From the NCBI GenBank assembly GCA_030390025.1, contig CM059431.1, positions 129,582,001 through 129,646,000 of the forward strand: DNA of 64,000 nucleotides. The letters run 5' to 3'. This DNA comes from Squalus acanthias (Eukaryota). Below are positions 3,451-31,839 of the stretch, piece by piece (position 1 is the first letter of the stretch; each line of letters begins with the position of its first letter). The translations under genes and the position numbers were made by a program. The notes below the pieces were generated by a model. It searched no databases. It was given only the letters and a program-made list of their open reading frames with translations, and was not told the origin of the DNA.

Positions 3451-4331
3451 ATGGGTGCCATTTATACTGTCTCACCTTGGTCCTCCGAATCGGACCACTA
3501 TGAGCCAGCAGCACCAGGCACACCAGCAGCACCAACAACACAACACCACCAACCTTCTCCTCAACCACCTGATGCTGCACAAGACAGAGGGCATCAGCAC
3601 AGGGCTGCACCATGCCAGAGGTGATACCCCCAACACTGGGTATACAGGCAGAGGATGAGCTTCCTCAACATGACTGAGCAGCAGTGCCATCGCAGACATT
3701 TGCACATTGCTGGAGCAAGATCTGCAGCCCAGAGGAGCAGGTGGACACGCCTTAGGAAATGGCTGTCAAAGTCACCAGCGCCCTCAACTTCTTCGCCTCA
3801 GGCTCCTTCCAGGGATCTGCAGCAGGCATTTGCAGCATCTCGCAGTTGGCCGCCCACAGATGTATCACACAAATCACCGATGCCCTGTTTGACAAGTCAG
3901 CCAATTATATCAACTTTGCCACTGATCAAGCCACTGTTACTGAGCAGGCATTCAGCTTTGCCACTCTGGCTGGCTTCCCATGGGTGCAGGGCATCATCGA
4001 CAGCACACATGTGGCCATCAGGGCACCCCATCATCACCCAGGAGTCTTTGTCAACCGCAAGGGCTTCCACTCCCTCAATGTGCAGCTAGTCTGCAACCAT
4101 AGGAAGATCATCATGGATGTGTGTGCCAAAATCCCTGGCAGCTGCCATGACTCTTTCATGCTGCGCCAGTCCACCCTCCCTCAGCTCTTCGCTCATCCAA
4201 ACAGACTTTCCAGCTGGCTGCTTAGAGACAAGGGCTATCCACTGAAGACGTGGCTCATGACACCCTTGAGGAGGCCAAGTACTGAGGCCGAGGAGAGATA
4301 TAATGAAAGCCACATTTCCACCAGATGTGTC
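3451..4331 (+). pseudogene. Harbinger DDE transposase, 5' part
   Basis: [56 protein letters not shown]; frameshifted N-terminus. Confidence 0.92.
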
Positions 4332-4905
4332 TGTAGAATTCGCAATATAATCGCGATTTTATAAATAAGGAGGAGACACATAGTTTCGTACAAACAGCTT
4401 TATTTCAGCAGAATGCTGTCAGGTTTTCAAAGTGGACACAAGCAGCCTGTAAAATGGCCGCCACGCCTCGTGGCAGAACATTCTAGACTTTTCGATAAGC
4501 AGACAAGATGGCGTTCCAATAAACATTTGTGCGAGATCGATCAAGACTCAGCACATTTGAGATAATACACAAGACATTATGGGTTTGCAGTATACACATA
4601 AATACTGGAATCGGTCTCCCAGGTGCGAATAAAGGGCTATTGTACCAAGCGATCAAGAACCCATCCAAAGACATTAATATGCAAAATCCCCATGACTCTA
4701 CGATGAGAGAGCCGTTTGCGGGTAGTTACAGAAAACATTTGGAAGCCCCAAAACCCCTCCAGGGAGAATACTGACCGGTTACACATTGGGAAAAGTATTA
4801 ACAGGTACTCAGGCAGTTACGAGTATCCCCGAAACCCATTAAACGGAGATCACCCTATACAAGAAGTTTGAGCGCCAAAACTCTGACAAAAGAAAAGACA
4901 TTAAG

Positions 4906-4940
4906 ATTGGGCGGGAAAAAGAGGAGTTTCAGCACTATAA
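4906..4940 (+). promoter_or_regulatory. Putative LTR promoter (inverted CCAAT, GC box, TATAA)
   Basis: ATTGG-GCGGG then CTATAA at 4935-4940; GC box and TATAA also kept in the diverged inverted LTR (14536-14563). Confidence 0.6.
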
Positions 4941-5774
4941 CTGTAAACTACAACCGTCCATCTTTCTCTTATCCTCTTGACTCCTTGCCGCTTGCCTCGT
5001 GTCTCTGCCTCTTGCAGCTCTTGCTGTTTGACTTGCTGAAAGACTATTGAACTTTCTGATCCGCCAGGATCTGCCTCGTGGCTTGCCGCAAAGATCTGTG
5101 TGGAACTGGGCTGTGAAGCCTTGAAGCGGGCACACCATCCCGAGAAGTCGGTAAATGGTGTTGGAACCGAAGGCCCGAGATGAGATGAGATGAGATGAGA
5201 AGAGAAGAAGACGACCATACGTATCGCCACGGTCAGTAAGCCCCGACCGCGCCTGTAGGTCGAATAGACACTTTCTTTGCCCAGGAAGACTATCTTTTGA
5301 GTTCTACAGAACTGGCATCGGAAGACCATTCTTCGAATTTTATCGCATCGGGGCGAGGGCACAGGAAGACTATTTTTTGAGTCGTGTCGGAACTCCGAGG
5401 ACAACACAGATCTTCATGACAACAGACGGTCCAGCCTGCTAGCCGGAGCAGAAACGAGTAAACAAGTGGGGTACAGAGACCCCTGATCAACACGTGGGTG
5501 ATCAGGTGCTGCGGTAAAAACATCCGAGCAGAGTTTTCGGAATTCTCCGAGTTATCACGAGTGGTGAGCATGAGTCTCGATCCTACAAATCTAGTTTAGG
5601 TCAGGTATTGATAGGGGAGGGTTTAAGTTTTAAGGATAATTGTAATGTGTGCCCCCATTTACGATGTGTCGTTCGTTCCTCGTTTCCCAAAAATTAGTTA
5701 CATAACTGCGTGTAAGATTGTACTGTCATTAATCTGTGCTTATGACATGTATTTCGTAATCTTGAATAATATGC

Positions 5775-5780
5775 AATAAA
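5775..5780 (+). terminator. LTR poly(A) signal (3' LTR copy at 17729-17734)
   Basis: AATAAA present in all three LTR copies, ~235 bp before the LTR end. Confidence 0.6.
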
Positions 5781-6019
5781 GATTTTCCATTTCACACTAA
5801 TCAACCGGGTCTACCTGAGTTTTCTCTGCATTATTGCTCTCGCACCTAAGTCCAGTGTCAGAACCGTAAGGGCGAGTGGGTCGAACCACTCACAGGGGTC
5901 TAGTGTTACCAGGCTGGCTGGAGACCAGAACAGGCAACAAGGCCTAACCTCACACTAGCGCCCAGGCTGAGCACAGAGCCACAGGCGGTGTCACACACGT
6001 GTCAAAACCCTCACAGAAA

Positions 6020-7816
6020 ATGGCGACCGCGGCAGGACACTGGCAGCAAGAGGGTAATGTGTTAGACTTTGGTATGATTGGGCGAAATGTCATGGAAGAG
6101 AGAATAGCAGATTATGTGTTCGGAAAAGTGAATTTGACCAAGAAATGGATAAGTGACCTGCTGGTGGATAAGCATCCACTAGAGGCGGCCGAGAGGTGGA
6201 CAGATAGCAAGGAACATAAAAAGGCAGTGGAGAAAGCGGTCTGGCTGATGTGCTATAAAAGACAAGTCCAAATTTCGGACCAGGTCATCACAGCGCAAGC
6301 AGCTCGGATCAGGCGTTTAGAGGTGGAAATGGACGAGAAGGTCGCGGGGGGGCAGCAGCTCATCACGACTTTAAATGCGTTGCATCAAGAACGCCAGGTA
6401 GTCACCAACCACCATAAAACAAAAATAGATTACCTCGAGTGCCAGGTCACTGAGGCAAAGTTAAGTGAGGGTAGATTAAAGGAACGATGTGCCTGCCTAG
6501 CTGCCCAAATAAAAGCCCAGGAAGAGAGCTTAACGGGGGTTAGGGCGGCATATAAGATGGCCCTCGAGGATAAATTTCAGGGGGCCGATCACAGCGTCTG
6601 CCAAAAGGAGATAGAGCACCTTAAAAGGGCCGTGAACAAAGCGCACGGCATGGTGTGCCTTATCAGTCCGTCAGCACACCAGCCGCTAGTGGATGAGGGA
6701 TTTCAGAAATCCCCACCGAACAAAGCAGAGGAAGTATTAGCCACTATGCCCTCCGCGCTACCCAGCTATTCGGAAACCTGGGTAAGGGAGGAAGTGGTGG
6801 AAGTAACGAAAGAGCCCACTGAGGTAGAAGTGAAGCCGGGACCGTTGTGTCCGGTCACGGGTATCAAAAGGGGCCCGAACAGAGACAGTGGGGAAGAAGG
6901 GGATCTCCTCAACCAGCTTGTGTTGCCTCACAGCTCACACCAGCTGAGGATTATGATCAGTCACGTACGGAAGCTGGCCGAGTCAGACGACCCTTCCGTA
7001 CATTTTAGGGAAATAGAGCAAACCGCAGCCATTAACGGCTGCGACGATGGGGAAACAGCAAAGATGCTGTTATTCTCATTAGATAGCTCGATCCTTCAGT
7101 GTCTCTCAGACGAGAGCAAGAGGGGAACTAATACCTATGGGGCACTAAGAAATGAGGTCCTAGAAGTGTTGGGAGCAGACGATGAAGGTCCGTTTGTTAG
7201 ACTGGGACAGATGGAGGGAGAACCCCCGAAGGTTTTCGCCGACAGGCTGTGGCCAGTATACCAGCGTAGCTGCCCAGGTGCGCCAGAGCGCGCCGATGTG
7301 GAAGGCGTCGGTTTAACTCATTGGCTCAGGTGTATAGTAACCAACAGTTTGCCAGCCGTCAGGGAGCAGGCAAAAGCGTGGTTTGATCCCACTAACCCCG
7401 CCACTACAGAGGAGTCGGTCCGAAATCGACTCACGGTAGGGTACCGTAATACCAGGAGTACGGGAGCACGTCCCCTTAAGGGAAAGGTGCGTGAGGCACG
7501 ACCCGCAGCCCCGGCTCAAAAGGAGTGGCATCAGGAGGGTAACCGCGCCCCGCAGGCCAGCAATGCTTGTTACGGGTGTGGGAAGACAGGGCACTGGCGC
7601 AAGAACTGCAGGAACCCTTGGAAGGATTCCAGGGATAAAAATCCCGCAGCCCGAGCCCAGGCGCCTGTCTCTGATAGGGAAGCTAGTGCACCCATCCATC
7701 CCGACGCGATCGAAACAGTGTTGGGAGCCATGCGTAACCTCATGAGTGCGCATGGAAGGGTGGCGGTTGCTACCGGCCCCGCAGGTGCCACAGCCCCGTC
7801 CAATAGTACCCAATGA
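6020..7816 (+). CDS. gag: Gag, 598 aa, intact: N-terminal coiled coil, capsid with MHR-like QMEGEPPKVFADRL, one CCHC knuckle
   Basis: Open ORF; CYGCGKTGHWRKNC at 7568-7609; AAAATGG start context. Confidence 0.9.
   Translation: MATAAGHWQQEGNVLDFGMIGRNVMEERIADYVFGKVNLTKKWISDLLVDKHPLEAAERWTDSKEHKKAVEKAVWLMCYKRQVQISDQVITAQAARIRRLEVEMDEKVAGGQQLITTLNALHQERQVVTNHHKTKIDYLECQVTEAKLSEGRLKERCACLAAQIKAQEESLTGVRAAYKMALEDKFQGADHSVCQKEIEHLKRAVNKAHGMVCLISPSAHQPLVDEGFQKSPPNKAEEVLATMPSALPSYSETWVREEVVEVTKEPTEVEVKPGPLCPVTGIKRGPNRDSGEEGDLLNQLVLPHSSHQLRIMISHVRKLAESDDPSVHFREIEQTAAINGCDDGETAKMLLFSLDSSILQCLSDESKRGTNTYGALRNEVLEVLGADDEGPFVRLGQMEGEPPKVFADRLWPVYQRSCPGAPERADVEGVGLTHWLRCIVTNSLPAVREQAKAWFDPTNPATTEESVRNRLTVGYRNTRSTGARPLKGKVREARPAAPAQKEWHQEGNRAPQASNACYGCGKTGHWRKNCRNPWKDSRDKNPAARAQAPVSDREASAPIHPDAIETVLGAMRNLMSAHGRVAVATGPAGATAPSNSTQ
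6021..6038 (+). other. Primer-binding site, tRNA-Arg(UCG)
   Basis: TGGCGACCGCGGCAGGAC is complementary to the 3' 18 nt (GUCCUGCCGCGGUCGCCA) of vertebrate tRNA-Arg-UCG as I recall it; lies 5 nt after the LTR end. Confidence 0.85.
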
Positions 7817-10800
7817 CTAGAGCCCGCACAGCCCGTCTACCTGTGTCCGCTCAGCTATGATGCGTGGAAGCGACCCCTGGTGGAGATGGAGGTATAGAAA
7901 CAGAAGGGTAGTTATTTGTTGGACACGGGAGCTTCTTGCACCGTGATTCATACAGATAGCCCTTTTGACTCACCGCTATCTACCAAGGTCCCATTCACAT
8001 TAGCGGGGTTCACGTTAAAGAACAGGCTGGCGCGTTCTCCCTTCCGCTATCCATTCATTTAGGAGCACTCCACACCACGTGGAAGTGCATACTGATGAAA
8101 TGGCAAGAGGGAGGTGGGAGAGGCATCCTCGGGTCCGATCTCCTATCGGGGCACGGGATCCTCGTGGACCTCAGGAATCACTGTCTCTGGGGGGCTAAGG
8201 GTGGAGAAGGCGAGGTAGTGGTAATTCCGGGGGAGGAAGAAACAGGGGCCCTGTGTACCATGAAGCCATCCGGAGGCTACGACCTCGGGCTTATGGTCGC
8301 GGATGTCCCAACGGACATGCAAACGTACGTGTCAGATAATATGCATGCGTTTGCAACCCACAAGCACGATTGTGGGAGGGTTACCGGGTTTGAGGTCAGC
8401 GTAGATGGGGACCCCATGACCCGGCCCCAAAAGCAGTATAACTTCCCCAAAGAAGCAGAACCCGACATGGAGACAGCAATGTCCTCCTTGGTGCAGCAGG
8501 GCATGTTGAGGCCGATAGCCACACACGTGAACTCCCCATTATGGCCGGTTAGGAAGCCGGGTAATTCGTGGAGGGCCACGGTGGACTACAGAGTCCTTAA
8601 CAGTAACATTCCCGCCTGCGCGCCCACGGTAGCAGCAGTCGCTGACCTAATAGGGAGTATCCCAGCGTCCGCGACCACGTTCACGGTGCTGGATATCTCG
8701 AACGGTTTTTGGTCCATCCCGCTGCGGTGAGAGGACCAGTACAAGTTTGCCTTTACTTTCAAAGGACAACAGTACACATGGAACTGTCTGCCACAGGGTT
8801 TCCACAACAGCCCCAGTATTTTCCATCAGTGTATGGCAGGAAGTTTAAAGGAGTTTAGTCAGCCCAATCAGATAGTACAGTACGTGGATGATTTGCTCCT
8901 ATTTACGGATCAAAGGGAGGAGCATGGACCACTGCTGGCCGAGTTATTGGAGCTGCTAGCGAGAAAGGGTTTTAAAGTGAACCCTAAGAAAGCACGTATC
9001 GGTCAGCAGGAAGTAAAATTCCTGGGGCTGACCATTCGCGCTGGGGAAAGAGCCATAGATATGGCTAGGAGGGAGTCGGTGCAAGAGTTACCGATTCCCA
9101 ACACCATAAGGGGTGTGAGGTCCTTTTTGGGACTGACCGGTTATTGCAGGGATTTTATCGAAGACTATGCGGCCACAGCGGCGCTGCTGCTCCGACTCCT
9201 CCATAAGGGAGTGGAGTGGTCTTGGGACGAGGGCTGCCAGGCAGCCTTCGAGAAGTTAAAAAGGGATTTGCAGACCGCGCCAGCTTTAGGGGCCATAGAT
9301 GGGGGGAAGGAGTTTTTCCTGGAGGTAGCTGCCAGCGGGGACAGCTTGAGCGCTGTGCTGCTCCAAGAGCGTCACGGCAAGCTGAGGCCGGTTGTCTATT
9401 CGTCCAGGGTGTTAACGGATGTGGAGAGGAGTTTCTCCAACTGCGAAAGGCACCTTTTAGCCACGCATTGGGCTGTGAAAAGATCAGCGATCTTCACAGG
9501 GCTCTCTCCCATCACTCTCCTCACCCATCACACACCAACTAAGATGCTTCTAGATGGGAGGATTAAAGATGGGACCGTAAGCAGCGCGCGTATTGCGCAC
9601 TGGACCCTTCTTCTTTCCCAGATGGATCTTAGAGTTAAAGGTCTTTGCGAGCCCAGGCTTGCGGCCAATTTGGTATACCCCGGTACAGCCCAGCAGTGTT
9701 CGGTGGAAGGGGTGTGGGAAGTCAACATAGGTTTGCGGGCCGGGATACATCCCACTGGGCGCGAGATTTATGTTGATGGTTCCAGCACAGTGTCCGCTGG
9801 CGAACGACTCACAGGGTGTGGAGTTTATGACCCTGCGGCAAACCTTGCCCTGGCGATTAAGCTCCCCAGCACCATGAGCGCGCAGCAGGCTGAGCTGTCT
9901 GCAGTGGTGTACGTCGTTACCCACCCAGAAATTTTCCCAACCCCATACACGATTTGCTCGGACAGTATGTTCACATGCAATTCGTGTACGGAATACCTGG
10001 CCATTTGGTCCCGCCGTGGATACAACTCCGCGGACGGGCGACCTTTAACGGTGAAGCCCTTGCTGGAAAAGATCCTAGCAGCAGTAGGGGAGGAAGGGGA
10101 GATTTTCATCCATAAGGTGAAGGCTCACTCCTCCACAGAGCCCCGTGGGGAGGGCAACCAGCAGGCGGATGCGCTAGCCAGGGAGGGTGCCCGCAACGGC
10201 ATTTTCTGGGACCCCTATGGGCCCAGACCCATGGCAGCGATCCAAGGCAGGGACGGGAATCCCGGGAACACCAGGGTAGCATTGCCCCTAGACCTTAAGA
10301 CCGTCCAGAACCAGGATCCCGCCCTAAAAGCAGTCCTCAGAACCCTTGCTGAGGGGAAGCAGGTAGAGGGTCCGTACAGTACGGCAACCCTCTCAGTCAA
10401 GGAAGGCATGCTGTTCCGCGAAGAGCAGTGGGTTGTGCCGCAGCAGCACAGGAGGGAATTCCTCCAGTTGGCTCACGAGGGACCGGGGGCAGGGCACCCC
10501 GGGCCCGAGGTTACCTGGCAACGGGTAGAGCAAGCGGGATGGTGGCCGGGGCTCAGGGAACAGGTCCGCGAGTTCTGTGCAAGCTGTCTCGTGTGCGCTG
10601 CAAATAACCCAGACCCCCAGAAAAGGAAAGTGCCCATGAGGCACGTCAGGAGGGTAGAGGGACCATGGCAGTCTATACAGATCGACTATATAGGGCCCCT
10701 GCCCACCACCCAGGGAGGCTATAAATACTGCCTCGTCTTGGTGGATGAGTTTTCCAAATGGGTGGAAGCCTTCCCCTGTAGAACAGCTACGGCACTGGGT

Positions 10801-12314
10801 ACTGCAAAAATCTTGGTCCGGGAAGTGTTCTCGCGGTGGGGACTTCCCCGTTTTGTGGAGTCAGACCAAGGGAGTCATTTCACCGGCCAGGTGATGCAGA
10901 ACACCCTCATGCTTTTGGGCATTGAAGGGAAATGGCACGTAGTGCACAATCCCCAGTCATCCGGGATTGTTGAACGCATGAACCGGACCCTGAAGGAAAA
11001 ATTGAGGAAAGAGACTACGAACTCGCCCCAAAAATGGGCGGAGGTTCTGCCTTTAGTCCTCATGGGGGTCCGGGCCAGTCAGTCGAAAAGTACGGGGTAT
11101 TCCCCGCACGAGGTGATGACTGGGAGGATCATGCGAACCCCCACCCATGTGCTAGCGCCGGTGCTCACGGAGGGTCAGCTCCAAGAGATAAGCAGGGACA
11201 AGTTCGCCCAGACCCTCTTGGAGCGCCTGAAGCAGGTTTATGAGCAGGCAGCTGGGAACATGGGAAGGCAGCATCAGGCAATCGCCTGTTGCTGGAACCC
11301 CGCAAAACGCGGGAGTGGGAAGTAGGAGACCAGGTCATGGTCAGAAACTACGCCAGAGTAGGGAGTCTGGAACCACTGTATATGGGACCCTACAACATTG
11401 TAGATAAGGCGAGTCCCATGGTATACGCCGTAAAGGTACCTCGGCGCACTAAGTGGTTCCACGTAAACCAGTGCAAACTGTACAAGCCAGGTGCACAAGG
11501 GCCAACCACAGGGGCCAAACCTGCGAGTGGGGAATCGCAGCCAGAGGTAGGGCCACAGGGCACACAGGCAGGCAAAGCAGCTTGCATCAGGGGAGGGGAC
11601 ATCCTGGAAAATTGTGAGACATTTTTGTGGGGTTGGGAGTCAGATGAGGATAGTGAAGATAGTGAAAGTGAGGATAGTGAAGATAGTGACACAAGCGAGG
11701 AGGAGCGGGAATCGGAGGACGAAAGGGTCGCCCCCGATTCAGGTATAGGAGGGACAGGGGCTGCAGATAGAGATCCACAAAGGGTGGAGGCCGAAGCTGC
11801 AGGTCCTGAACGCAGGGGGGAGGAGCTAGGGGAGGCGGAGCCAGCCGCTGTGGTGGGACCACAGGGCGTGGCGATGGAAGCCTCAGAGCCCGAGCCGCCC
11901 GCCTTGAACGTCTTGCCCTCGAGGGAGGTAGGGACTGCGAGTGAAGGGCCGCCTACTGGGCCAAGTAGGGCGGTGCCACAAGTTGCAGATCCCGAGTTCA
12001 GGGAGGCGGAGCCAGGGGAGGCGGAGCCAGCGACTGTGGCGGGACCACAGGTCGCCACGGTGGAAGTCTCGGAACCCGGTCCGTCGGTCCTGGAGTTCCT
12101 GCCCCCGGTAGCTCTCCGTAGGTCGGGTCGGATACCCCAGCCCAGGAAGGTATGGTCAAGTCCCCAGACTGTCCCAAGGCGTAGGCGCAAGGCTCAGGCA
12201 GCCCAGGGAGAGCCCAGTCCCAGCGCAGCAGCAACAGGCTGCGGCAGATCAAAGGGAGGGGTCAATGCCCTCCCACCGTCGGGAAAGGCTCGGGGCAGCC
12301 TTTTCAGAATTTAA
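7817..12314 (+). pseudogene. pol: Pro-Pol (PR, RT, tether, RNase H, IN, long C-terminal tail) with 4 lesions: TAG 7895, 1-bp deletion ~8015, TGA 8728, 1-bp deletion ~11280
   Basis: LLDTGA (DTG 7922-7930), LPQGFHNSP, YVDD 8881-8892, IYVDGS...AELSA...SDS...GNQQADALA, HHCC zinc finger, D10684-D10864-E10972 (D-35-E), GPY motif. Confidence 0.93.
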
Positions 12315-12614
12315 ATAGGCCGCCCTGGGAACGGGCGGCGCTGTACAGTCATAAGGTTAAGGATAAGGTTATAGTTTTCAATATAAGGTTATAAGGTTAT
12401 AGTTTTAAATCGGTTTAAGTCGGTAGTTTAATTTTGTTTAATAGAAAGAGGTAAAATGATGACAGTTTTAGAGATAGGATTAGTTAAAGTTTATCCAGCG
12501 CACATGTCTTCTTACGTGAGGCGAGGTCAGGGGACCCGCTCACCCTTCACAAAAGCCAGAGACTCTTGCGAGGCTGGCTACCTCATTCTATCTGATCACA
12601 GGAACCAAGGAAGG

Positions 12615-13667
12615 ATGGAACGAATTCTAGTATTGCTCGCGGCAATCGGATGTGGATTGGCCTATCGAGGCCACACCAAGGATGTCGTGGTGTTTGGATG
12701 CTCCGGGGACACGGCCCCCATCGCGGTGGATGGGACCGGAAGACGAGAGGCTGAGGAGACCACCACCTATTTCCACAAGGGAAGGTGGCCAGGATGGCTG
12801 GGAACTAACTCAACGGAGTATTCCAGCACATCGGGTTTTGCCTACCAAGAGACTTCTTTACTGTGCCCCAAAGTAAGGATCATCGCACCCAGGATCAGCA
12901 TCAGCGTCAGCAAACGGATTTGTTTGACTTGTAATGGGAATGTCCCATTGAGCCGATGGTGGTGGCTACGAAAGCTGAGCAAAAACATGAGGAACTCTTC
13001 GGTCGAGTGGGAGCGACTGGGTAATAATACCCATCGGACAATTACGGGGACAAACGGACAAGTGAGAGTCTGTTGGGACAAATGGTGGGAACCGCATGAG
13101 GGAATTTATGTATGTATGTGGGGGTCAAAATACGTTTGCCCCAAAGGCATCTCCATATTTTTCATTAATCAATGGCAGGATAACGGACAGGGGATGAGGT
13201 GGGATGCGAGCACCAGGGGGTGCGGGGCCCCATACTCCCCGATCCCGGTAAATGCCACTGAACTCATTACGCGCCCACGCAAAGCCCCGCCCACGATTCC
13301 GGTGGTTCTAGCTAAGGAAGAAGGGTGCCCTAAAACCAGTAAGGGACCCGGGAATGGTTTGGTACTGGTCCCCACAGACCAGATACTATTTCAGGGGGTA
13401 CATTACGCGGTGGCCTCGGTGATTTTAAATCTCACCGAGGTGCGGTTACCAGAGTGGTGCCCCAAAAAGACGGAACAGTTATATCAGGTCCTGTTGACCA
13501 AGATGTTCAGACAATTCTATGAGTTCGATTTCGCGGAAATTGATAAAACAAGTTTGTACACCGCACCACATGAAGTTTTGGATCAGGTGGGGAGGCAAAG
13601 AAGGGGTGTTGTGAACGACGCGTTCACTGCTTTCAACACAGGTACATCTGTGGTCAACGCTCTAGAC
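12615..13667 (+). pseudogene. env: Env 5' part: signal peptide, Ig-like domain, F2-like region, furin site, fusion peptide
   Basis: MERILVLLAAIGCGLA signal; several N-x-S/T sites; RQRR 13593-13604 then GVVNDAFTAFNTGTSVVNALD; candidate splice acceptor TCACAG|G at 12601. Confidence 0.85.
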
Positions 13668-13669
13668 GA

Positions 13670-15142
13670 AATGTACGAAATGGAAAATCTTTATTGCATA
13701 ATATTTAAGATTACGAAACACATGTCATAAGCACAGATTAATGACAGTACAATCTTACACGCAGTTATGTAATTAATTTCAGGGAAACGAGGAACGAACG
13801 ACACATCGTAAATGGGGGCACACATTACAATTATCCTTAATACTTAAAACCCTCCTCTATCAATATCTGTCCTAAGCTAGATTCGTAGGATTCGAGACTC
13901 ATGCTCACCACTCGTGATAACTCGGAGAATTCCGAAAACTCTGATCGGATGTTTATCACCGCAGCGCCCACGTGTCGATCAGGGGGTCTCCTGGCCCCAC
14001 TTGTTTACTCGTTTCTGCTCCGGCTAGCAGGCTGGAACGTCTGCTGTCATGAAGATCTGTGTTGTCCTCGGAGTTCCGACTCTACTCAAAAAAAGAGTCT
14101 TCCTGTGCCCTCGCACTGATGCGATAAAATTCGAAGAATAGTCTTCCTGTCAGTTCTGTAAAACTCGAAGAAGTCTTCCTGGCAAGGAAAATGTCTATTC
14201 GACCTACAGGCGCGGTCGGAGCTTACTGACCGTGGCGATAAGTATGGTCTTCTTCTCTTCTCATCTCATCTCATCTCATCTCATCTCATCTCGGGCCTTC
14301 GGTTCCAACACCGTTTACCGACTTATCGGAATGGTGCGCCCGCTTCAAGGCTTCAGAGCCCAGTTCTACACAGGTCTTCGCGACACGACACGAGGTAGAT
14401 TCGAGCGGATCGTAAAGTTCAACAGTCTTTTTGAAAAGAGACACGAGGCAAGCAGGAACAAGACGGCGAGTCAAAAGCAGCCACGAGGATAAACACCAGC
14501 AAGATAAGAGAAAGATGGACGGTTGGAGCTTGTAATTATAGTGCAAAATCTTTCGTTTCCCGCCCAACCTTAATGTCTTCTCTTTTGTTAGGGTTTGGCG
14601 CTCAAAAGTCTTGTATAGGGTGATCTTCGTTTTAATGGGTTTCGGGGCTACTCGTAAACGTCTGAGTACCTGTTAATATTTCTCCCATTGTTTAATCGGT
14701 CGGCGTTCTCCCCGGAGGGGTTTTGGGGCTTCCAAGTGTTTTCTGTAACTACCCACTAACGGCTCTCTCATCGTAGAGTCGTTGGGATTTTACATATGAA
14801 TGTCTTTGGATGGGTTCTTGATTACTTGGTACAATAGCTTTTATTCGTACCTGGGAGACCGATTTCAGTATTTATGTGTATACTGTGAACCCATGATGTC
14901 TCGTGTATTATCTTCAATGTGCTGAGTCTTAATCGATCTTGCACAAATGTTTACTGGAACGCCATCTTGTCTGCCTGTCGAAAAGTCTAGAATGTTCTGC
15001 CACGAGGTGCGGCGGCCATTTTACAAGCTGCTTGTGTCCACTTTGAAAACCTGACAGCATTCCGCTGAAATAAAAGCTGTTTGAACGAAACTATGTGTTT
15101 TTCTCCTTATTAATAAAATCGCGATATATTGCGAATTCTACA
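13670..15142 (-). repeat. Inverted U3-R-only LTR of a sister subfamily inserted in env
   Basis: Reverse complement of LTR 4332-~5800; about 20 differences in the first 250 bp by eye; no TSD. Confidence 0.92.
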
Positions 15143-15843
15143 GTGGCCGGGGAGCACACATAATACTGTGTCCCCAGCACTTGAATGCCTTTTTAACACC
15201 ACAGTGCGGGTTCAGAACGGCTGGTGCCAAGTCCATGAATTGCACCATGGAGGCAATGGCACAAGATCATGTGCCTCCGCAGGTAGCATACATCGGGGGT
15301 GGAACATATTGTGTTACCACTGCAGCGCAACACTACCAGCATGGAAACCGTAGCCGGTGTCCGGTAAGTGACAGCAGTTTCTGTTTCAAACCCAGGGCGG
15401 AAGTTCAAGTAGCTCAACAGCGAATTGTCCCAATCCCTGAACCATCCACGGTTCATCTTACCGTCAAAGAGAACTTCACCGACCTGCAGCAATTCGTCGC
15501 ACACTTCGGATACCTCATTCCCCCTCTCCCTGAACACCTCACCAAGCTTTTGAAAGCCGTCGCGGTATCACAAAAACATTTTTACACACTAGAACAGAAA
15601 ACTGTCGAGATAGGGACAGAAATTCTGGACATAGTAATTCCACCGTGGTGGAATCTGTTCTCCAACATTGAAGTGCCTTCCTGGATTAGAATAGCCTCCC
15701 ACATTTTAGTTGTATGCCAAGTGTTTATTGTGGTATACTTATTGGTCGTGCATTGTAAGAGAGGCAAACGCCTCACCAAGAACGAAAACACGGGAGAGTG
15801 GCGAGAACGTTACGTGCGCGTGCACGATGAAAGCACCGTGTAA
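15143..15843 (+). pseudogene. env: Env 3' part: Cys-rich F1-like region, heptad, TM anchor, basic tail
   Basis: Open frame from 15145: ILCPQH..PQC..NCTM..YIGGGTYCV..RCP..FCFKP, then LTKLLKAV..LEQKTVEI, TM IASHILVVCQVFIVVYLLVV, KRGKR. Confidence 0.85.
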
Positions 15844-16279
15844 TCAGAAAATGGCGTCACTCCCGTTTGCCACGTGTGCCTCGGAAGTGTTGTAATCGAT
15901 CGTGATTTTTTTCAGAGACTGTAATTACGTTTGGAACTCGACATGTTTAAGAGTTGGTTTTGATTATTTTGGTGATGGTGTTGTTGTTGAATATGATTGT
16001 TTGGTTTTGTTTTGTTTTTCTTTTCCCTGAATAAAAAATATGAACATACAGGTGATACGAGAGGCATCGGCCTGGTTACGCCTGGAAGGAAAACAAGTGG
16101 TGTAAGTTTTAAAGGCAAATAATGCCTGCGGTGTTATAAGAATGTAATTTTCCTGGGAAATAAGGACGACACAAAGACCCTAGATAGTTTAAGTTATGGG
16201 GATTTTCTGGATCTGGAGAAATCGAGATAATATTGCTCACCACAATATTTTTGATACGATAAGCGGAGTTATTCGCATC

Positions 16280-16291
16280 AACAGGAGGGAC
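16280..16291 (+). other. Polypurine tract
   Basis: AACAGGAGGGAC immediately before the 3' LTR TG. Confidence 0.75.
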
Positions 16292-17969
16292 TGTAGAATT
16301 CGCAATATAATCGCGATTTTATAAATAAGGAGGAGACACATAGTTTCGTACAAACAGCTTTATTTCAGCAGAATGCTGTCAGGTTTTCAAAGTGGACACA
16401 AGCAGCCTGTAAAATGGCCGCCACGCCTCGTGGCAGAACATTCTAGACTTTTCGATAAGCAGACAAGATGGCGTTCCAATAAACATTTGTGCGAGATCGA
16501 TCAAGACTCAGCACATTTGAGATAATACACAAGACATTATGGGTTTGCAGTATACACATAAATACTGGAATCGGTCTCCCAGGTGCGAATAAAGGGCTAT
16601 TGTACCAAGCGATCAAGAACCCATCCAAAGACATTAATATGCAAAATCCCCACGACTCTACGATGAGAGAGCCGTTTGCGGGTAGTTACAGAAAACATTT
16701 GGAAGCCCCAAAACCCCTCCAGGGAGAATACTGACCGGTTACACATTGGGAAAAGTATTAACAGGTACTCAGGCAGTTACGAGTATCCCCGAAACCCATT
16801 AAACGGAGATCACCCTATACAAGAAGTTTGAGCGCCAAAACTCTGACAAAAGAAAAGACATTAAGATTGGGCGGGAAAAAGAGGAGTTTCAGCACTATAA
16901 CTGTAAACTACAACCGTCCATCTTTCTCTTATCCTCTTGACTCCTTGCCGCTTGCCTCGTGTCTCTGCCTCTTGCAGCTCTTGCTGTTTGACTTGCTGAA
17001 AGACTATTGAACTTTCTGATTCGCCAAGATCAGCCTCGTGGCTTGCCGCAAAGATCTGTGTGGAACTGGGCTGTGAAGCCTTGAAGCGGGCACACCATCC
17101 CGAGAAGTCGGTAAACGGTGTTGGAACCGAAGGCCCGAGATGAGATGAGATGAGAAGAGAAGAAGACGACCATACGTATCGCCACGGTCAGTAAGCCCCG
17201 ACCGCGCCTGTAGGTCGAATAGACACTTTCTTTGCCCAGGAAGACTATCTTTTGAGTTCTACAGAACTGGCATCGGAAGACCATTCTTCGAATTTTATCG
17301 CATCGGGGCGAGGGCACAGGAAGACTATTTTTTGAGTCGTGTCGGAACTCCGAGGACAACACAGATCTTCATGACAACAGACGGTCCAGCCTGCTAGCCG
17401 GAGCAGAAACGAGTAAACAAGTGGGGTACAGAGACCCCTGATCAACACGTGGGTGATCAGGTGCTGCGGTAAAAACATCGAGCAGAGTTTTCGGAATTCT
17501 CCGAGTTATCACGAGTGGTGAGCATGAGTCTCGATCCTACAAATCTAGTTTAGGTCAGGTATTGATAGGGGAGGGTTTAAGTTTTAAGGATAATTGTAAT
17601 GTGTGCCCCCATTTACGATGTGTCGTTCGTTCCTCGTTTCCCAAAAATTAGTTACATAACTGCGTGTAAGATTGTACTGTCATTAATCTGTGCTTATGAC
17701 ATGTATTTCGTAATCTTGAATAATATGCAATAAAGTTTTTCCATATCGCACTATTCAACCGGGTCTACCTGAGTTTTCTCTGCATTATTGCTCTCGCACC
17801 TAAGTCCAGTGTCAGAACCGTAAGGGCGAGTCGGTCGAACCACTCACAGGGGTCTAGTGTTACCAGGCTGGCTGGAGACCAGAACAGGCAACAAGGCCTA
17901 ACCTCGCACTAGCACCCAGGCTGAGCACAGAGCCACAGGCGGTGTCACACACGTGTCAAAACCCTTACA
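16292..17969 (+). repeat. 3' LTR (1678 bp)
   Basis: TGTAGAATTC...ACCCTTACA followed by TSD TGTC. Confidence 0.95.
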
Positions 17970-17973
17970 TGTC

Positions 17974-18242
17974 ATAGAGCAAACAATAGGCATGCTCAAG
18001 ATGTCCTTCAGATGCCTTGACAGATCTGGAGGAGCTCTTCAGTACGCACGAACCAGGGTCTCCAGAATCGACATGGTCTGCACAACACAGCACAGCAGCA
18101 AAGATTAGCGCTGCATGAGGAGCAAGGCAATGAGCACACAGCCTCTTCAGAGGAAGAGGAGCAGGAGGAGGAGGAGGAGCATCAGCTGGATGACGAGGAG
18201 GAGGAGGAGCTCAAGGAACTCATCATGGCCAGATTTACTTAA
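17974..18242 (+). pseudogene. Harbinger 1 transposase, 3' part
   Basis: Resumes (TRCV)[23 protein letters not shown], acidic tail, ARFT*. Confidence 0.9.
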
Positions 18243-18526
18243 CTTTACTCAGTACAGCCATATGGCTGCCACATGCTGCACCAGGTAGGCACCAGCCAAC
18301 AGCAACACCATAAAGCATCCCTACAATGACCAAGCCATTCCTTTCACACTGACCACCATTGTTGGAGGTATCGTTATGTCTCACCATTCACTGCAACTCA
18401 CTAAGCCACTTCCAAAGGTGCTCACAAATTTGTGCATGGCCAGAAAATGGTGAAAATATGACAGCACATTAACAGAAACTTTACATAAACATTGAATAAA
18501 ATGCCCAAGTGGCTACCCTTGTGAAT

Positions 18527-20378
18527 CTACTTGTGTGTCGTCATTCTCTTATGCGTGCTTCTACGAGGTGCTACCCCTGTGGCTTCAGCAGAGGTAGAGG
18601 CAGCCTGCTCACTTCCCTGCTGCGACTGCTTAAACACTCTTGGCAGATGTCCTCTGGGTTTTGGAGCCTCTGATGGTCCCGCCAAAGTCTGTTCCTCCTG
18701 CGACTGTGCAGGGGCAGACTCGGCCATTGCTGTCCGAGGAGGCATCTGGGGCTCTGACTGAAGGGGTGGCAATGGGGAAGAAGTGTGAACGCTTTGAGAT
18801 GAGCCCCCACTTCCATGTGCCCTCTCACCATCATCCCTCTCATGGGCCACCCGCACTTACCTGCTAGCAAGGAGCTGGAAAGCACCTTGCTGCACATCAG
18901 TGGGGCCATGAGGACCCATGTCTACGCTGACATCCCTGCTAAAGAGGAGGTCTATGAGCCTCTTCCATCTATTCGTCATAGATACCATGTGCTCCTGTGA
19001 GTGGCGCATTAGCTGCTCCATGTAGGTGGCCATCCTATCCATGGAAGAGCCTACAATCGCCATCGTCTGCGACACGGTGGTGCTTATGTTGGAGATGGAC
19101 TCTTCCATTCTCTGCATATTTGCAGACATCGTGCTTGCAAAACCTGTCAAAGCCTCCTGCATTTCTTACTGCACCTCCAGGAATGCCCTCTTTCTGGATG
19201 GCCCCCGAGCCTGCTTGCAGCTGAGCAGAGCTGGGAGCATCCTGTGCCCTCCGGCGAGGAGTCTCCACTGCTGTTCCTGTCTCCACCATCTGCTCTTGCT
19301 CACTTGTGAGTTGTGAGACACCAGGTAACAGCACTACTCCATCTCGTGTGGCACCCACCGAGGTGTGTGTATCTGCGCTGGTGCTGGGTGCACCCTCAGA
19401 GGCTGGAGGCTCCTCTGAGGAGTCATCCTCCTCTTTCTCCTGGACAGTGGTGGGGAGGGGGGTGGTGGGGACTCTTGATGGACCTGTGGGAGAGTAACGA
19501 GATGAGTTAAATCTGCCATATCAAGAATGGGTACAGATACCATTATGCACATGCTGACCATTCAATGGCTGCTGACATCAGTCCCCATATGAGTGACTGA
19601 TGTATGCCATGCAGCTGTATGATATGCAATTCTGTCACCAGGTTGCTGAGATGTCCCTCTCTCTCCATCTCCCACCTCCAGCTGCTTGGCAAGTCCAGAT
19701 GTTTTCAAGGCAGCCTCCTCTGCTGTTGCAAGGGTGACCAATGATGGAGGGTGACCTCCGGTTCTCTCCCTCTCCCTCTTATTGTGGGCTCTCTTTTCCT
19801 GCAAGGAGGGAAAGAAGCAAAGATTGAGTGAGAGTAATGGGATGAGTGTAAGTAATGGATGAGTTAGATCTTTAGAGGGAGACTATGATTGCATGGGATG
19901 CCAATGCCAAGTGGCCTCCTTGTGTGTTGTTAGTTGGTATGATTGCATTAGGATGAGGATGAGTGTGAGGAGTGGCTAGTCAGATGGGGATGTGATAATG
20001 TAGATAGAGAGGGACGGGTGGAGGTGCAAGGTAAGTTGGTGTGAGTAAGGATGTGCAGAAGTAAGGTTGGGAAGGCAGAGTGATGGGGATGTGATGAGAG
20101 GCACAGCAGGATGAAGTTGAATGTGGCTTTGTAGTCACCTTTCTTGACCTAATGAAATCATTGAAACGTTTCCGGCACTGCATCCAAGTCCTCCTGACAA
20201 CATCCCTGCTGTTAACCTCCTCTGCAATTTAGAGCTAGGCTCTTTTTGGCACCTGGGGAGGTCTCTTCCACCCATTCGAAGGGAAGAGGACCTCACTGCG
20301 TGCTCTAACTCCCTCCACAAGCATATGGAGGGAGTCATCGGAGAACCTGGGTGCAGCCCTCTGTCTATGTGCAGTCAT
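18527..20378 (-). pseudogene. Harbinger 1 Myb/SANT-like partner gene, 3 exons (20378-20139, 19798-19639, 19483-18527), frameshifted
   Basis: MTAHRQRAAPRFSDDSL..., QCRKRFND, EKRAHNKRERERTGG; GT-AG junctions. Confidence 0.8.
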
Positions 20379-20539: not shown

Positions 20540-20750
20540 GTGCCTCTCATCACATCCCCATCACTCTGCCTTCCCAACCTTACTTCTGCACATCCTTACT
20601 CACACCAACTTACCTTCCATCTCCACCCGTCCCTCTCTCTCTATCTACATTATCACATCCCCATCTGACTAGCCACTCCTCACACTCACCCTCATCCTAA
20701 TGCAATCATACCAACTAACAACACACAAGCAGGCCACTTGGCATTGGCAT
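20540..20750 (-). repeat. Inverted duplication of 19898-20104
   Basis: Near-perfect reverse complement, ~210 bp. Confidence 0.9.
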
Positions 20751-23970: not shown

Positions 23971-25767
23971 GAAAACAAACCTGTGCTACTTGCACTGGCT
24001 CTGAAAGATGAAAATTTTAACAGTATTAAGTCTATCAAACAGTTGATCCAGAGTTGGGAAATCCGCTAGCCAGACATCAAGACTGAAACTATTTAACATT
24101 GGTAAAAGAAAAATGTGACTTTTCTTCATTCCACGTGGCTGAGGATATCACAACAGAATGAATGTTACCAATGCAAATCAGACTTTTTAAATAGAACAGA
24201 GATGTAGCTGAATGGAAACAGAGGAGCAGCTTTGTTCTCTGTGCTTTTGAATTTTACGAGTTCTATGATGATGTGCTAGTCTTTGTACTTAGTTGAGAAG
24301 CACCATTGCAGCATCTTTGAAGATTATGCATGCTTCAAGGCATACTTAATTATGTTAATTAAGGCTGGTATATGGCTTGCAATGACTGGAGAAAAGAGGG
24401 GCCAGTTGTCAAAGTGACATCTGTAATAACTATAAATAACTATATTAGTATGCCTGCAAAACATGTGAATGATGGCTATACTCTAAACTAAAAATGACAT
24501 GTTTTCAGTTATAAAATAACACTGTACACTAGATATGTGATTGAGTATGCTACATAAACAAATATTTCATTTCTATGTATGCAAGTTATGTACTATTTTA
24601 TGTATAATGGACAAACTTGACTTTAGTCAGATATTTAAATGATCGGACATAGACTTTCCTTCTAGTCATTCCACACCTTTTTTTGGGTGACTGTATTATT
24701 TTTTGCCCAGTTTTACGCAAGGCTGTACAATCCTTGCAAAGTGTAGTTGCATGCTGTATGAAACTCAAAACATGCTTCATGCTATTTGAGGACTTCCTTC
24801 ATCAGAGCATCAACCTTTGCTTCAAAAGCAAAGCTTTCTGACTTGCACTTACCCTGCCATTTTTAGTCTTTACTGTTAGAATAATTTCCAAAAGGTAGTG
24901 GTACGTATCTGGGTCATTTCAATGTGCATTTGATTAGATGGTTGAATTCATCACTACACTGAAAAGTTTTTTAAAATGTTAGAAATTTGGCAATAAATTG
25001 ATATGTGATGTACTGTTGAAGTGCCTCTAAGAACCACCAAGAACAAAATTCAGACATATATTTTCTCCAAACTTACTGAGCTTCCCCAAAATAATTTTGG
25101 TTCTACCTGGCTATTAAAAGGGTTCATTTTTAGGTCACAATCACAGTTTGTGAGAAAATTTACATTTTATTTTATCGGATCAAAACAAACAGCAGGTAAA
25201 GAGTACACAGTTAAAAGAACCACCCCTAAAAAAAATTGGCGATGACAGGGACTGCATTTACACAGATGCATAGTATGTGAAAGCCAATATTCTATGATTC
25301 TATAATAATCAGGTCAGTGGCATTTCTTCAGAATCCTTGACGGCCAGGTTTTATTAAAGGATTTCTATACAAAGCAGATTGAACAAGAACCTCTTTACCT
25401 CAATGAGCAAGAATGTGATTGATCAAATAATAATTGATCAACCAATTAAAGCCAGTTAGGTTACCTGTGTGACCTGAATACAACTTTACCAGTGGCTGTC
25501 AAAGTCACCACCGCCCTCAACTTCTTTGCCTTTGGATCCCTCCAGGGCTCTGCTGGAGACATTTTCAGGATCTCGCAGTCAGCGACTCACAAATGTATAA
25601 GACAGGTGTCTGATGGCTTGTTTACCAGGGCCGCCAATTATGTCAACTTTGCCTGCGATGACGCCAGTCAGAAGTCGTAGGCACTTGGGTTTGCAGCTCT
25701 GGCCGGCTTCCCATAGGTGCAGGGCGTCATCGTTTGCACACATGTGGCAATTAAGGCACCTATAGAT

Positions 25768-26598
25768 AAGAACATAAGAACATAAGAAATAGGAGCAGGA
25801 ATAGGCCACTTGGCCCCTCGAGCCTGCTCCGCCATTCAATAAGTCATAGCTGATCTTGGGCTCAAAGCCACTTCCCAGCCCGCTCCCCATAACCCTTCAC
25901 TCCCTTATCTTGCAAAAACCTGTCTATCTCCAACTTAAATGTATTTAATGACCCAGCCTCCACAGCTCTCTGCGGCAGAGAATTCCACAGATTTACGACC
26001 CTCTGAGAGAAGAAATTCCTCCTCATCTCAGTTCTAAAAGGGCAACACGGTGGCATAGTGGTTAGCACTGCTGCCTCACAGCGCCAGGGACCCGGGTTCA
26101 AATCAGGCCACGGGTGACTGTCTGTGTGGAGTTTGCACATTCTCCCCGTGTCTGCATGGGTTTCCTCCGGGTGCTCCGGTTTCCTCCCACAGTCCAAAGA
26201 TGTGTGGGTTAGGTTGATTTGGCTATGATAAATTGACCCTTAGTGTTAAGGGGGATTAAATACGTGGGGTTACGGGGATAGGGTGGGATATGTGTGGCTC
26301 GATGGGCCGAAATGGCCTCTACCTGCACTGTGGGGATTCTGTGATTCTGTGAGCCTTTACTCTGAAACTATGCCCCCGAGTTCTAGATTTCCCCACGAGG
26401 GGAAACATCCTCTCTGCATCTACCCTGTCGAGCCCCCTCAGTATCTTATATGTTTCAATAAGATCACCTCTCATTCTTCTAAATTCCAATGAGTATAGGC
26501 CCAACCTGCTCAACCTTTCCTCATAAGTCAACCCCCTCATCTCTGGAATTAAGCTAGTGAATCGTCTCTAAACTGCCTCCAATGCAAGTATATCCTTG
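25768..26598 (-). mobile_element. CR1 3' fragment inserted in the Harbinger 2 transposase
   Basis: LYSLEFRRMRGDLIE, FFSQRVVNLWNSLP; (TTCTTATG)n tail; AGAT duplicated at both ends. Confidence 0.9.
26040..26352 (+). mobile_element. tRNA-derived V-SINE (HE1-type)
   Basis: A box TGGCATAGTGG, B box GGTTCAAATC, V-domain TGTGTGGAGTTTGCACATTCTCCCCGTGTCTGC..GGTTTCCTCCGGGTGCTCCGGTTTCCTCCCAC, CR1-like tail (GATTCTGT)n. Confidence 0.88.
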
Positions 26599-28884
26599 AG
26601 ATCAACCAGGAATGTTCATCAACCGCAAGGGCTTCCACTCCATCAATGTGCAGCTGGTGTGCAACCACAAAAAGATCTTTATGCAGGTGTGCGCAAGATT
26701 CCCGGGCAGCTGACATGATGGTTTCGTCCTGCAGCAGTCCACCCTCCCAGACGTCTTCACACCTAGAAGCAGAGTTACCAGCTGGGTGCTCAGAGACAAG
26801 GGATACACACTTAAAACGTGGTTGATGACACCGCTCAGAAACCCAAGGAATGAGTCCTAGGAGCGAAACAATGAATGCCGTATGGTCACCAGATGTATAA
26901 TCAAACAAGCCATCAGCATGCTGAAGATGCATTTCAGGTGCCTGGACCGATCTGGAGGTGCCCTTTAGCACGTACCAACCAGGGAATCCAGAATGGTCAT
27001 GATGTGCTGCGCTCAGCACAACATTGCCCAGCAGCGAAGTTTGGACCAGCAGGAGGAACAAAGCGCAGAGCACAGAGCCTCTTCAGAGGATTCCGAGGAG
27101 GAGGAGGAGGAAGCCGAAGGTGATACGGGCAGTGCACCACCAGCGGCGCACATTGCTGCTCGGGATGTCATAATTATTGCGAGGTTCACTTAGGTTCCAC
27201 CAGTGCACCCATCCAGGAACCACATGTTAAAGCCACTTTTGCACCCCCAATGCCACTAACACAAAGTAGTCCTGCAATCAGCCAAGCATCTCTTTCACAG
27301 ACCCCCATTGGTCACTGTAAATTCATGTCTTCCCATTCATCATCAAAAAACTGAAAAGCCCACTTGTTACCCAGCAACCAAGAATGGGCAAAACGGAAAA
27401 GTGGTGCAAAAGAACAATATTTATGTGCTTTAAATACACAACAGAAACTTAACAATTTAACAATGTCTAACACATCCATGTGCATACCCTTGTACAACTA
27501 AATATCTTTACTCTTCCTTTTCCTCGTGCTTCTGCGTAGTGGAACCCTTGTAGCTTCAGCAGAGGTAGAGGCAGGCTGCTCAGATCTCTGCTCCGACTGT
27601 TGAGTTGCTCTTGGCCGACGTCTTCTGGGTTTTGGAGCCCATGAGGGCCCCGCCAAAGACTGCACCACCTGCACCTGTGCAGGGGCAGACTCGGCCATCG
27701 AGACACAAGGCAGCATTGTCAGGTACTGGCCTGTGGGGGTGGGTGGGGGGGGGGGGAGGGGGCGGGGTGATGGTGGAGACAACGGGTGAGAAGAGGAAGC
27801 AATTGAGAAGAGGAAGCACTTCTGTGTAAGGCCCCCTCCGGTTACCTGCCTCTCCCTGCTGTTCTCTGCTCTCTTCTCCTGCAAGGAGTGAAAGAAGAGA
27901 CCAGTAATGAGTAAGAATAATGGCACGTGTTAATGCAATGGATGGAGAGCATTTGTTGAGGGTGACGATAAGGAATAGGCATGACATTGCATAGGGATGA
28001 CGGTGAGTGTCAGTGCTGGATAGATAGATGGCGATGTGGGGAAGTGCGTAGAGAGAGAGAAAGATGGGTACAGCTGCAAGGTAAGTTGGTGTGAGGAGTG
28101 ATGTGCTGGAATAGACTTGAGAAGGCAGAGTGAGGGGGTTGGGGTGATACGCACATCAGGATGTAGGGCAATGTACCCTTACTCTCACCTTTCCTGCCCT
28201 GCTTAGGGCATTGAAGCGCTTCATGCACTGGATCCAGGAGCATGGCACCATGCTCCTGCTGCTGACCTCTTCGGCAACCGCCAAACACACCTTCTTTGTC
28301 CCACCAGCAGGCTTCTACCTCCCGTTGCTAGGGAACTGTATCTCCCTCCGGGTCCTCACAGTCCCAAGCAGCACATCCACGGAGGCGTCGGTGAAGCTGA
28401 GCAGAGCCTTTGCCCATCTTGACTCCATTCCAACACTTCTTTCTCTCTCCATGACAACTCCGAATGCTTCAACTGGTATGTTTGGAGTGTCATTTTAAAT
28501 AATGGAGTTGAGATTGCATCATATGGGTCGTCATTACGGCCACTGACATTAACTGGACGGGAAACCTTGAAATCAGATGTTAATGAACAGACTGCGTTAA
28601 AAAGCCATTGACAGACGCGCTGTACATATTTCTGGATTTCCCACGTACTATCGGGCCCCCCCTCCCATCCCCACCCCACTCCCAGCACGTCTCCGCATTA
28701 AATTAGAGTCAGTATGAGGACAAATATTGCCCAATGTGTGTATGTCTATGGATTACAACAAATTGGGTGACAACGTAAAGAATTAGCAAAATGTGACCAA
28801 TAGCTTCAGAAAAACAGCTGGCACTGTCCCCAAAAAGCTCACAAACCAAAATCTGCTCTAATGATAAGCATATGACAAGTAGTA

Positions 28885-30678: not shown

Positions 30679-31839
30679 ATGGGGGCTGCAATGATTGGGG
30701 GCGTCGTCCTGCTCCAGCTGAATCGGAGGATACCGAGACGCAGACAGAGAGTGGCAATGATGGCCAGACGGAGGAGGGCCATCAGGCACATGTACAGGAG
30801 AGCTTACCCTCCCAGGGTATATCGTGAACAGCTCTCCTACATCCATATGTCCGAGGAGCTGTGTTTGCGGAGGCTGTGATTCAGCAAGGAGGTGGTCACT
30901 GAGCTCTGCCACCTGCTGCAGCCAGATCTGCAGCCTCAGCTGAGGTCCAGGACGTCTCTGTCGGTGGCAGTGAAGGTCACAGTGGCGTTGAACTTCTACG
31001 CCACTGGCTCATTCCAAGCTGCTGTTGGGGACCTCGCCAATATCTCCCAGTTTGCGGTGCATCGCTGCATCCGGCAGGTCACCAATGCCCTCTTCAGAAG
31101 GAGACGAGACTTCATCTCTTTCCCTATGACCCCAGACAAGCAGCGTGACCGTGCTCTGGGCTTTGCGAGGGTAGCGGGCTTCCCCATGGTGCAGGGCGCC
31201 ATTGACTGCACGCATGTGGCTTTGCGTGCTCCGCGAGAGAATGCAGAGGAATTCAGGAACAGAAAGGGGTTCCATTCCTTGAATGTGCAGTTGGTCTGTG
31301 ACCACAGACAGGTGATACTCGCTGTCAATGCCCACTATCCGGGCAGCTGCCACGATGCTTTCATCCTGCGCCAGACTACTGTGGCAGAAGTTTTCGAGGC
31401 ACCGCATCAGCCAGTTGGTTGGCTTCTGGGGGACAAGGGGTACGCATTGAGCACCTGGCTGATGACACCGCTCCGTACGCCAAACACCCCTGCTGAGCTG
31501 CGGTACAATGAAAGCCATCAAGCAACCAGGAACATTATTGAGCGCACAATCGGCGTGCTGAAACAACGGTTCCGCTGTCTGGACCATTCCGGAGGAGCCC
31601 TGCAGTACTCGCCTGAGCAAGTTTCGAACTTCGTAGTGGTGTGCTGCATGTTGCACAACATGGCAATCCTCAGGACCCAGCCAATGCCACCAGGCCTTGC
31701 AGCACCACCAGAGGAGGAGGAGGAAGAGGAGGAAGAGGACGAGGACGATGATCATCAGCAGCACCAAGGCAGGAGGGCGGCCCACAATGGTCAAACTGCA
31801 AGGGCCGTCCGTCAACGACTAATAGCAAGCCGCTTCTAG
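30679..31839 (+). pseudogene. Harbinger DDE transposase with one in-frame TGA (30877-30879)
   Basis: GAIDCTHV, PGSCHD, LLGDKGY, IERTIG; RRL*FSKE consistent with CGA>TGA. Confidence 0.92.

Follow-up and report, generated by a model that had tools for sequence, protein, structure and literature searches.

How does a provirus come to carry, in the middle of its env gene, a long piece of LTR in antisense orientation, and what could follow from such an arrangement? The question is raised by a 64,000-nt stretch of the Squalus acanthias genome (assembly GCA_030390025.1, contig CM059431.1, forward-strand positions 129,582,001 to 129,646,000), which we call the window. The rearrangement is most likely an ordinary insertion-and-repair accident of a known type in a dead provirus, and the fold-back that it creates is most likely without effect on the ERV family. 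Positions of the features are collected in Table 1.

Table 1. Features of the rearranged provirus, by position in the window
Feature	Position	Strand	Remarks
Left target-site duplication TGTC	4328..4331	+	same 4 nt recurs at 17970-17973
5' LTR, 1,684 nt	4332..6015	+	ATTGG 4906, GC box 4909, TATAA 4936, AATAAA 5775
gag	6020..7816	+	598 codons open; weak zinc-knuckle match
pro-pol	7969..12314	+	RT, two RNase H domains, integrase
env 5' part	12615..13673	+	353 codons without stop
Left junction	13666..13682	+	two copies of ACGAAATG separated by one base; join of microhomology or templated-repeat type
Inverted LTR piece of apparent sister subfamily, putative U3-R	13674..15142	-	GC box 14565, TATAA 14540, AATAAA 13695
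Two plus-strand AATAAA (15069, 15112), near right end of insert	15069..15117	+	
Right junction	15141..15144	+	exact LTR terminus CA
env 3' part	15143..15843	+	open to its own stop
Purine tract preceding 3' LTR	16283..16291	+	
3' LTR, 1,678 nt	16292..17969	+	AATAAA 17729; 16292-17750 could serve as second fold-back arm
Right target-site duplication TGTC	17970..17973	+	

The host provirus spans 4332-17969 and has the target-site duplication TGTC at both ends. It interrupts a DDE_Tnp_4 transposase gene whose two halves, put together, are colinear with a paralogue at 26601-27698, so the placement of the whole element is sound. By self-BLAST, the window contains three LTR-like copies and no more: a direct pair (4331-6015 and 16291-17969, 98.9% identical) and an inverted copy (13673-15144), which is 87.0-87.6% identical to the flanking LTRs. 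We infer the limits of U3, R and U5, as well as the position of the poly(A) site, from motifs (ATTGG, GC box and TATAA near 4906-4940; AATAAA at 5775). To judge by its LTRs, which are 99% alike (13 substitutions and 2 gaps), the provirus is young. It is also dead, and pol is broken by an in-frame stop in the RT (8728-8730) and by a frame change near 11244-11325. The LTR-LTR differences are clustered: 1 of the 13 substitutions falls within the first 630 nt (p about 0.02), 3 are crowded into a 12-nt stretch (5061-5072) and 4 into a 19-nt stretch (5782-5800) adjoining the poly(A) signal. Such clusters may come from mixed templates or gene conversion, and LTR dating is thus unsafe for this provirus. 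By reading of the alignment, 5 of the 13 differences look like CpG decay.

The insert, 1,469 nt long, lies antisense in place of the middle of env. Its reverse complement opens with TGTAGAATT, as do both LTRs, and it extends from LTR position 1 to about position 1465 of the 1684, with the last ~220 nt missing. Similarity to the LTRs stops 16-18 nt past AATAAA (13695-13690, minus strand), at the putative R/U5 boundary indicated by the motifs. A preceding sequence-only reading had the insert start exactly at the LTR terminus and end about 20 nt past AATAAA, and both observations are borne out (CA at 15141-15142 is the end that both LTRs have). Its figure of about 8% divergence holds for substitutions, which amount to 8.6% (124/1,438 and 123/1,431 paired columns against the two flanking LTRs); when gaps are counted the difference is 12-13%, and it is uneven, identity falling to 71% in one 150-column block. 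Because of this divergence, the insert can be assigned on its sequence to a sister subfamily, and it is not a fold-back copy of its own locus. CpG o/e is 1.10 in the insert, 0.82 and 0.87 in the LTRs and 0.31 and 0.34 in the flanks; insert and LTRs are therefore both young, and their order is unreadable from CpG.

At the right junction, the two bases that follow CA match the pair that separates the purine tract from the 3' LTR. They may represent an unprocessed cDNA end, microhomology (shared letters) or chance (1 in 16). The left junction is of another kind. As had been claimed, the 8-nt sequence ACGAAATG occurs at both 13666 and 13675; the left end of the insert, previously put nearby, is corrected to 13674 plus or minus about 3, because env homology reaches 13673. 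Such a repeat arose in 46 of 200,000 random joins of env with antisense LTR, so it is not due to chance and indicates a polymerase- or homology-guided join. The closest env homologue (P0004) reads D-T-M-E at this place, where the window has D-E-M and then, inside the insert, Y-E-M-E; the homology between env and the antisense LTR may have been longer at this point. No target-site duplication of 4-6 nt surrounds the insert at any of 140 junction offset pairs (20 x 7), in agreement with the earlier observation. A canonical solo LTR would be a whole LTR flanked by such a duplication, whereas the insert has no duplication and would be whole only if the sister LTR were shorter.

Env itself allows the loss to be sized by alignment to homologues, as the sequence-only reading had proposed. 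Its 5' part carries a cleavage-like site, RQRR (13593-13604), with a fusion-peptide-like stretch behind it, and it is 74% identical to P0004 up to 13673. There the homology ends, to be picked up again at 15148. About 196 codons (~590 nt) are missing between 13673 and 15143, an estimate from two independent, diverged homologues, P0002 (residues 55 and 254) and P0018 (residues 260 and 465). Neither env part is interrupted by a stop. Sawshark and skate are the sources of the named env homologues, and the closest named pol is from another shark. An Ig-like stretch lies in the N-terminal part of env (12867-13115), with a faint Ig_3 match on the homologue P0005 (E 0.58). The 5,014-aa database protein P0011 contains many tandem repeats that resemble the N-terminal stretch 12678-12878.

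Of 22 runs listed, none is recorded as RNA; read data were taken from four of them, all in the form of assembled contigs, which drop rare variants and carry no strand or locus information. The four runs contain 11,832, 7,498, 2,052 and 627 family contigs; all 30 bins are covered in each run, and short, variable contigs lie over both env parts and the insert. Thousands of variable contigs point to a many-copy family. Across the four runs, no junction-spanning contig occurs among the 32 pieces listed (22,038 further), no joint linking 13673 to 15143 among the 15 joints listed (3 further) and no loose end at either junction among the 24 listed (691 further). Higher depth over the insert in run X9, which we guess to be RNA, was set aside, as contig depth cannot rank parts. 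Dating of the insert by "private" letters was dropped as well: 40 of 332 places were visible, and the runs may represent another individual or species. A 21-nt LTR pattern has no match in viral contigs and three in metagenome contigs, all three without further similarity.

We consider it rather probable that the right junction was made by integrase and the left one by microhomology-guided repair, either in a one-ended integration or in a nested insertion followed by deletion. A member of the sister subfamily, with an LTR about 9% diverged, would have inserted antisense into env of the provirus. Its U3 end would have been joined exactly at the terminal CA, presumably by integrase. The other side would have been joined by a host polymerase or by end-joining, with the help of short homology between env and LTR near the poly(A) signal. 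This joining would have left the 8-nt repeat. It would also account for the loss of ~590 nt from env, of the final ~220 nt from the LTR and of the target duplication that integration should produce. The repeat, the deletion size and the absence of a duplication are observed; the pathway is a probable one. Two routes lead to this result and are indistinguishable here: a single aberrant one-ended integration, or two steps, first a nested antisense insertion and afterwards the deletion of ~0.8 kb. The sequence-only reading had named one-ended integration, which is supported in outline by the exact end, the microhomology end, the absent duplication and the deletion, and a template switch, which stays as a rival; it had overlooked the equally good two-step route.

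Three of the features expected of one-ended integration are present, namely an exact integrase-type end, a truncated opposite end with short homology and a target deletion in place of a duplication. In the available text of PMC5041404, aberrant HIV-1 and ASLV integrations have the same anatomy: one normal end, the other truncated with short homology, and flanking DNA deleted instead of briefly duplicated. Joins between two viral DNAs, in either orientation, are described there too. Those events were provoked in cultured cells by drugs or by mutant ends, and most of the provirus was kept; at our locus the remnant is about 1.47 kb long, it sits in another provirus, and it arose in the germ line. 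Our preferred origin draws further on the rarity of the junction repeat in random joins, on the loss of env codons measured with two homologues, on the missing duplication in a provirus that itself has a 4-nt one, and on pol being already broken. Nested and truncated solo LTRs, in which an LTR of the same family sits inside another element in either orientation, resemble the locus; they differ from it in that here the duplication and the last ~220 nt are missing and about 590 nt of target are lost. With so many family copies and variants, nesting is unsurprising. Still, insertion and repair leave some facts uneasy. The break 16-18 nt past AATAAA has to be a coincidence (a ~20-nt window in 1,684, or ~1% if random, judged post hoc). 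The one-step form requires loss of nearly the whole element, beyond the truncations in the excerpted PMC5041404 cases. Further, microhomology joining normally keeps one copy of the shared letters, and here there are two; the two bases past CA, if an unprocessed end, would equally fit a join without integrase; and neither junction is crossed by any contig piece among those listed.

The main rival, unlikely as we judge it, is a template switch during reverse transcription in a particle with RNA or DNA of both subfamilies. The growing strand would have left env, copied the sister U3-R in opposite polarity from the microhomology to the end of the template, and returned to env ~590 nt further on, so that the insert would be as old as the provirus. 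Both the short repeat and the missing duplication are thereby accounted for, and the exact U3 end with its two further matching bases would be run-off from the end of strong-stop DNA. The uneven spread of the differences between the two flanking LTRs (a single one of the 13 in the first 630 nt, 4 within 19 nt) could result from mixed templates, against which stands the CpG-decay appearance of 5 of the 13. Inversions of reverse-transcription origin usually copy the provirus's own sequence, however, and the sequence inserted here is 9% diverged and not the provirus's own; two polarity-changing switches and co-packaging of diverged subfamilies would be required. Asymmetric LTRs and rare inversions are known in HIV proviruses: inversions occur in 2 of the HIV-1 proviruses listed in the accessible part of PMC9278108, 1.3% for each class. 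As reported there, defective HIV-1 proviruses share with our locus a deletion, inverted viral sequence inside the provirus and unequal LTRs. The inverted piece of our locus differs in coming from a diverged sister subfamily and in being bounded by an exact LTR end. It is quite improbable, in our opinion, that the insert is instead a solo LTR preserved in full, from a subfamily whose LTR is shorter (1,471 nt) and would here have its TACA end at 13672, the mismatched flanks being produced by recombination between two separate insertions or by later deletion. From 13672 the insert does read TGTA...TACA, with the ending of the 3' LTR, but TACA occurs seven more times inside it, the TG is also explained by an env Met codon common to the closest homologue, and target-site duplication is missing in this case too.

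Could the arrangement be a product of assembly, with an LTR of another locus chimerically joined into env? The very high copy number of the family invites such an error, and the junction-spanning contigs lacking among the 32 pieces listed (22,038 further), together with a best run that contains 0.65 of the sampled words, speak for it; against this, Logan contigs lose rare variants. A fold-back read artefact was rejected, since it would be near 100% identical and not 87%. Junction overlaps are 8 nt or less, env continues in order and open beyond the insert, the whole provirus has its target-site duplication, and its flanks are colinear with the paralogous transposon in the window. We therefore hold misassembly to be highly improbable. 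The slightest chance of all is given to a LINE reverse transcriptase at work on a break in env, where it would have primed at the R end of a sister viral RNA, copied the 3' end of that RNA and halted at U3. This would explain the end near the poly(A) signal, the short tandem repeat on the priming side and the target deletion, and LINE-type RT sequence is present in the window (37154-38317). The left junction, however, is without a poly(A) tail, and that copying ended precisely on the first base of U3 would have to be a coincidence. No description of this exact insert layout was found among the titles and abstract openings listed by literature searches, most subscription papers lying outside the search.

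Whichever way the insert arrived, it forms an inverted repeat of family sequence within one putative transcription unit, as marked out by LTR motifs. RNA transcribed through 15142 could thus form a long imperfect duplex. That the insert can pair with the 3' LTR, as proposed earlier, was confirmed by computation: the 1,497 columns comprise 1,308 Watson-Crick pairs, 42 G-U pairs and 147 unpaired positions, around a loop of 1,149 nt. Perfect runs of 21 nt or more number 14 (502 nt in total, the longest 59), and the summed duplex energy is about -2,290 kcal/mol over five blocks. A second partner had been missed. The putative 5' R also pairs with the left 840 nt of the insert (747/860 columns), so some duplex would be possible even if the RNA ended early.

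The sequence-only reading went on to suggest that the locus could silence its own family. Transcription, folding back and release of small RNAs or edited dsRNA acting in trans on the family, in the manner of Mu killer, is a course to which we give very little credence. An "ERV killer", as improbable in our view, would be a transcribed provirus in which an accident of reverse transcription or integration had placed the whole U3-R of the family antisense; its RNA would pair with both the 3' LTR and its own 5' R, and two subfamilies would be targeted at once by the dsRNA or antisense small RNA of which the locus would be the dominant source. The extensive pairing with its long perfect runs, the second partner in the putative 5' R and promoter-like motifs intact in the 5' LTR and the insert would all suit such an activity. 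Two plus-strand AATAAA (15069 and 15112) may nevertheless end the RNA before the 3' arm; the stretch downstream of 15069 is U-rich (T fraction 0.42, versus 0.31-0.33 at the LTRs' own signal). The insert also retains its own AATAAA with ordinary downstream U content (0.31), and antisense read-through is not specially favoured; weak termination of the antisense transcript through the missing U5 was considered and finds no support in U content. Editing in the arms, which had been suggested as a check, left no ADAR signature: an A-to-G excess between the arms was not found (44 versus 38, p = 0.58). Finally, this is a single locus among very many family copies. With the internal AATAAA and no A-to-G excess, the suggestion of family silencing is left without support.

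Silencing by a single-locus hairpin that spreads to a whole family is, to our knowledge, known in maize and not for a vertebrate ERV. The maize precedent is Mu killer, which in the excerpted account (PMC8224964) is transcribed, processed to 21-22 nt RNAs and silences MuDR heritably, its hairpin being near-identical to the target. Like our locus, it is a mobile-element copy whose rearrangement produced an inverted repeat and a possible hairpin transcript against its own family (PMC8224964); our locus differs in being a retroviral element of a vertebrate, in having arms of 87% identity and in that any silencing by it is hypothetical. Antisense piRNAs offer a vertebrate model of silencing in the part of PMC11599104 available. 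The likeness of the locus to hairpin and piRNA silencers would be one of geometry only.

As one dead copy, the rearrangement itself carries little weight. It provides a clean germ-line case of one-ended or repair-completed LTR insertion, a process mostly known from cell culture, and it indicates that two LTR subfamilies were present close in time. If RNA is made, the locus would matter as a candidate for a hairpin that starts family-wide silencing, and the insert-specific variants and two unique junctions make this idea directly testable.

The host provirus is lokiretrovirus-like in layout. Like the lokiretroviruses of PMC7947760, it has gag-pol-env between LTRs, two RNase H domains (tether and second RNase H), an env with a basic cleavage site and a fusion-peptide-like stretch, and nearest pol relatives from frogs and coelacanth that are named NYNRIN-like or Gypsy-integrase-like. 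The cleavage site is RQRR in our provirus and RXKR in lokiretroviruses (excerpts of PMC7947760). PF17919/PF17917 and PF00075 occur in one pol frame, and the nearest full-length named pol relatives are frog proteins, 40-43% identical. In the RT tree (45 of 46 matches kept, no labelled lokiretrovirus reference), the nearest by path are P0020, P0023 and frog proteins, and our RT falls outside an 11-row fish/frog clade and a 23-row Ty3/Gypsy-like clade. PF00523 has no match in the two env parts or in 10 homologues, env being broken and the published similarity weak (PMC7947760, available part). Because of the lacking fusion-glycoprotein match and of the missing labelled reference, we do not file the provirus as a lokiretrovirus. 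An env profile search of PDB gave 0 matches, and the predicted fold of an env homologue is unusable (pLDDT 36.9). The main text of PMC7947760, in the part available, has 0 mentions of shark, cartilaginous or Chondrichthyes.

Several minor observations concern the provirus and its surroundings. The TGGCG after the 5' LTR, inside which gag starts, we take to be primer-binding-site-like. The gag ATG (6020) lies 5 nt past the LTR end, and the leader is almost wholly within the LTR. At the other end of the coding region, a long acidic, proline-rich low-complexity extension (11500-12314) follows the C-terminal domain of integrase and contains an internal repeat (11781-11921 and 11967-12107). DDE_Tnp_4 transposase pieces lie at 3756-4331, 17974-18727, 26601-27698 and 30880-34172, accompanied by a Myb/SANT protein on the opposite strand, a pairing that is presumably PIF/Harbinger-type. 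An RT-bearing frame at 37154-38320 (minus strand) is probably part of a LINE, and 25766-26598 and 60056-60583 contain sequence related to it. Downstream of the provirus, an inverted repeat (19898-20104 and 20540-20750) has arms of ~210 nt that are 96% identical and 435 nt apart.
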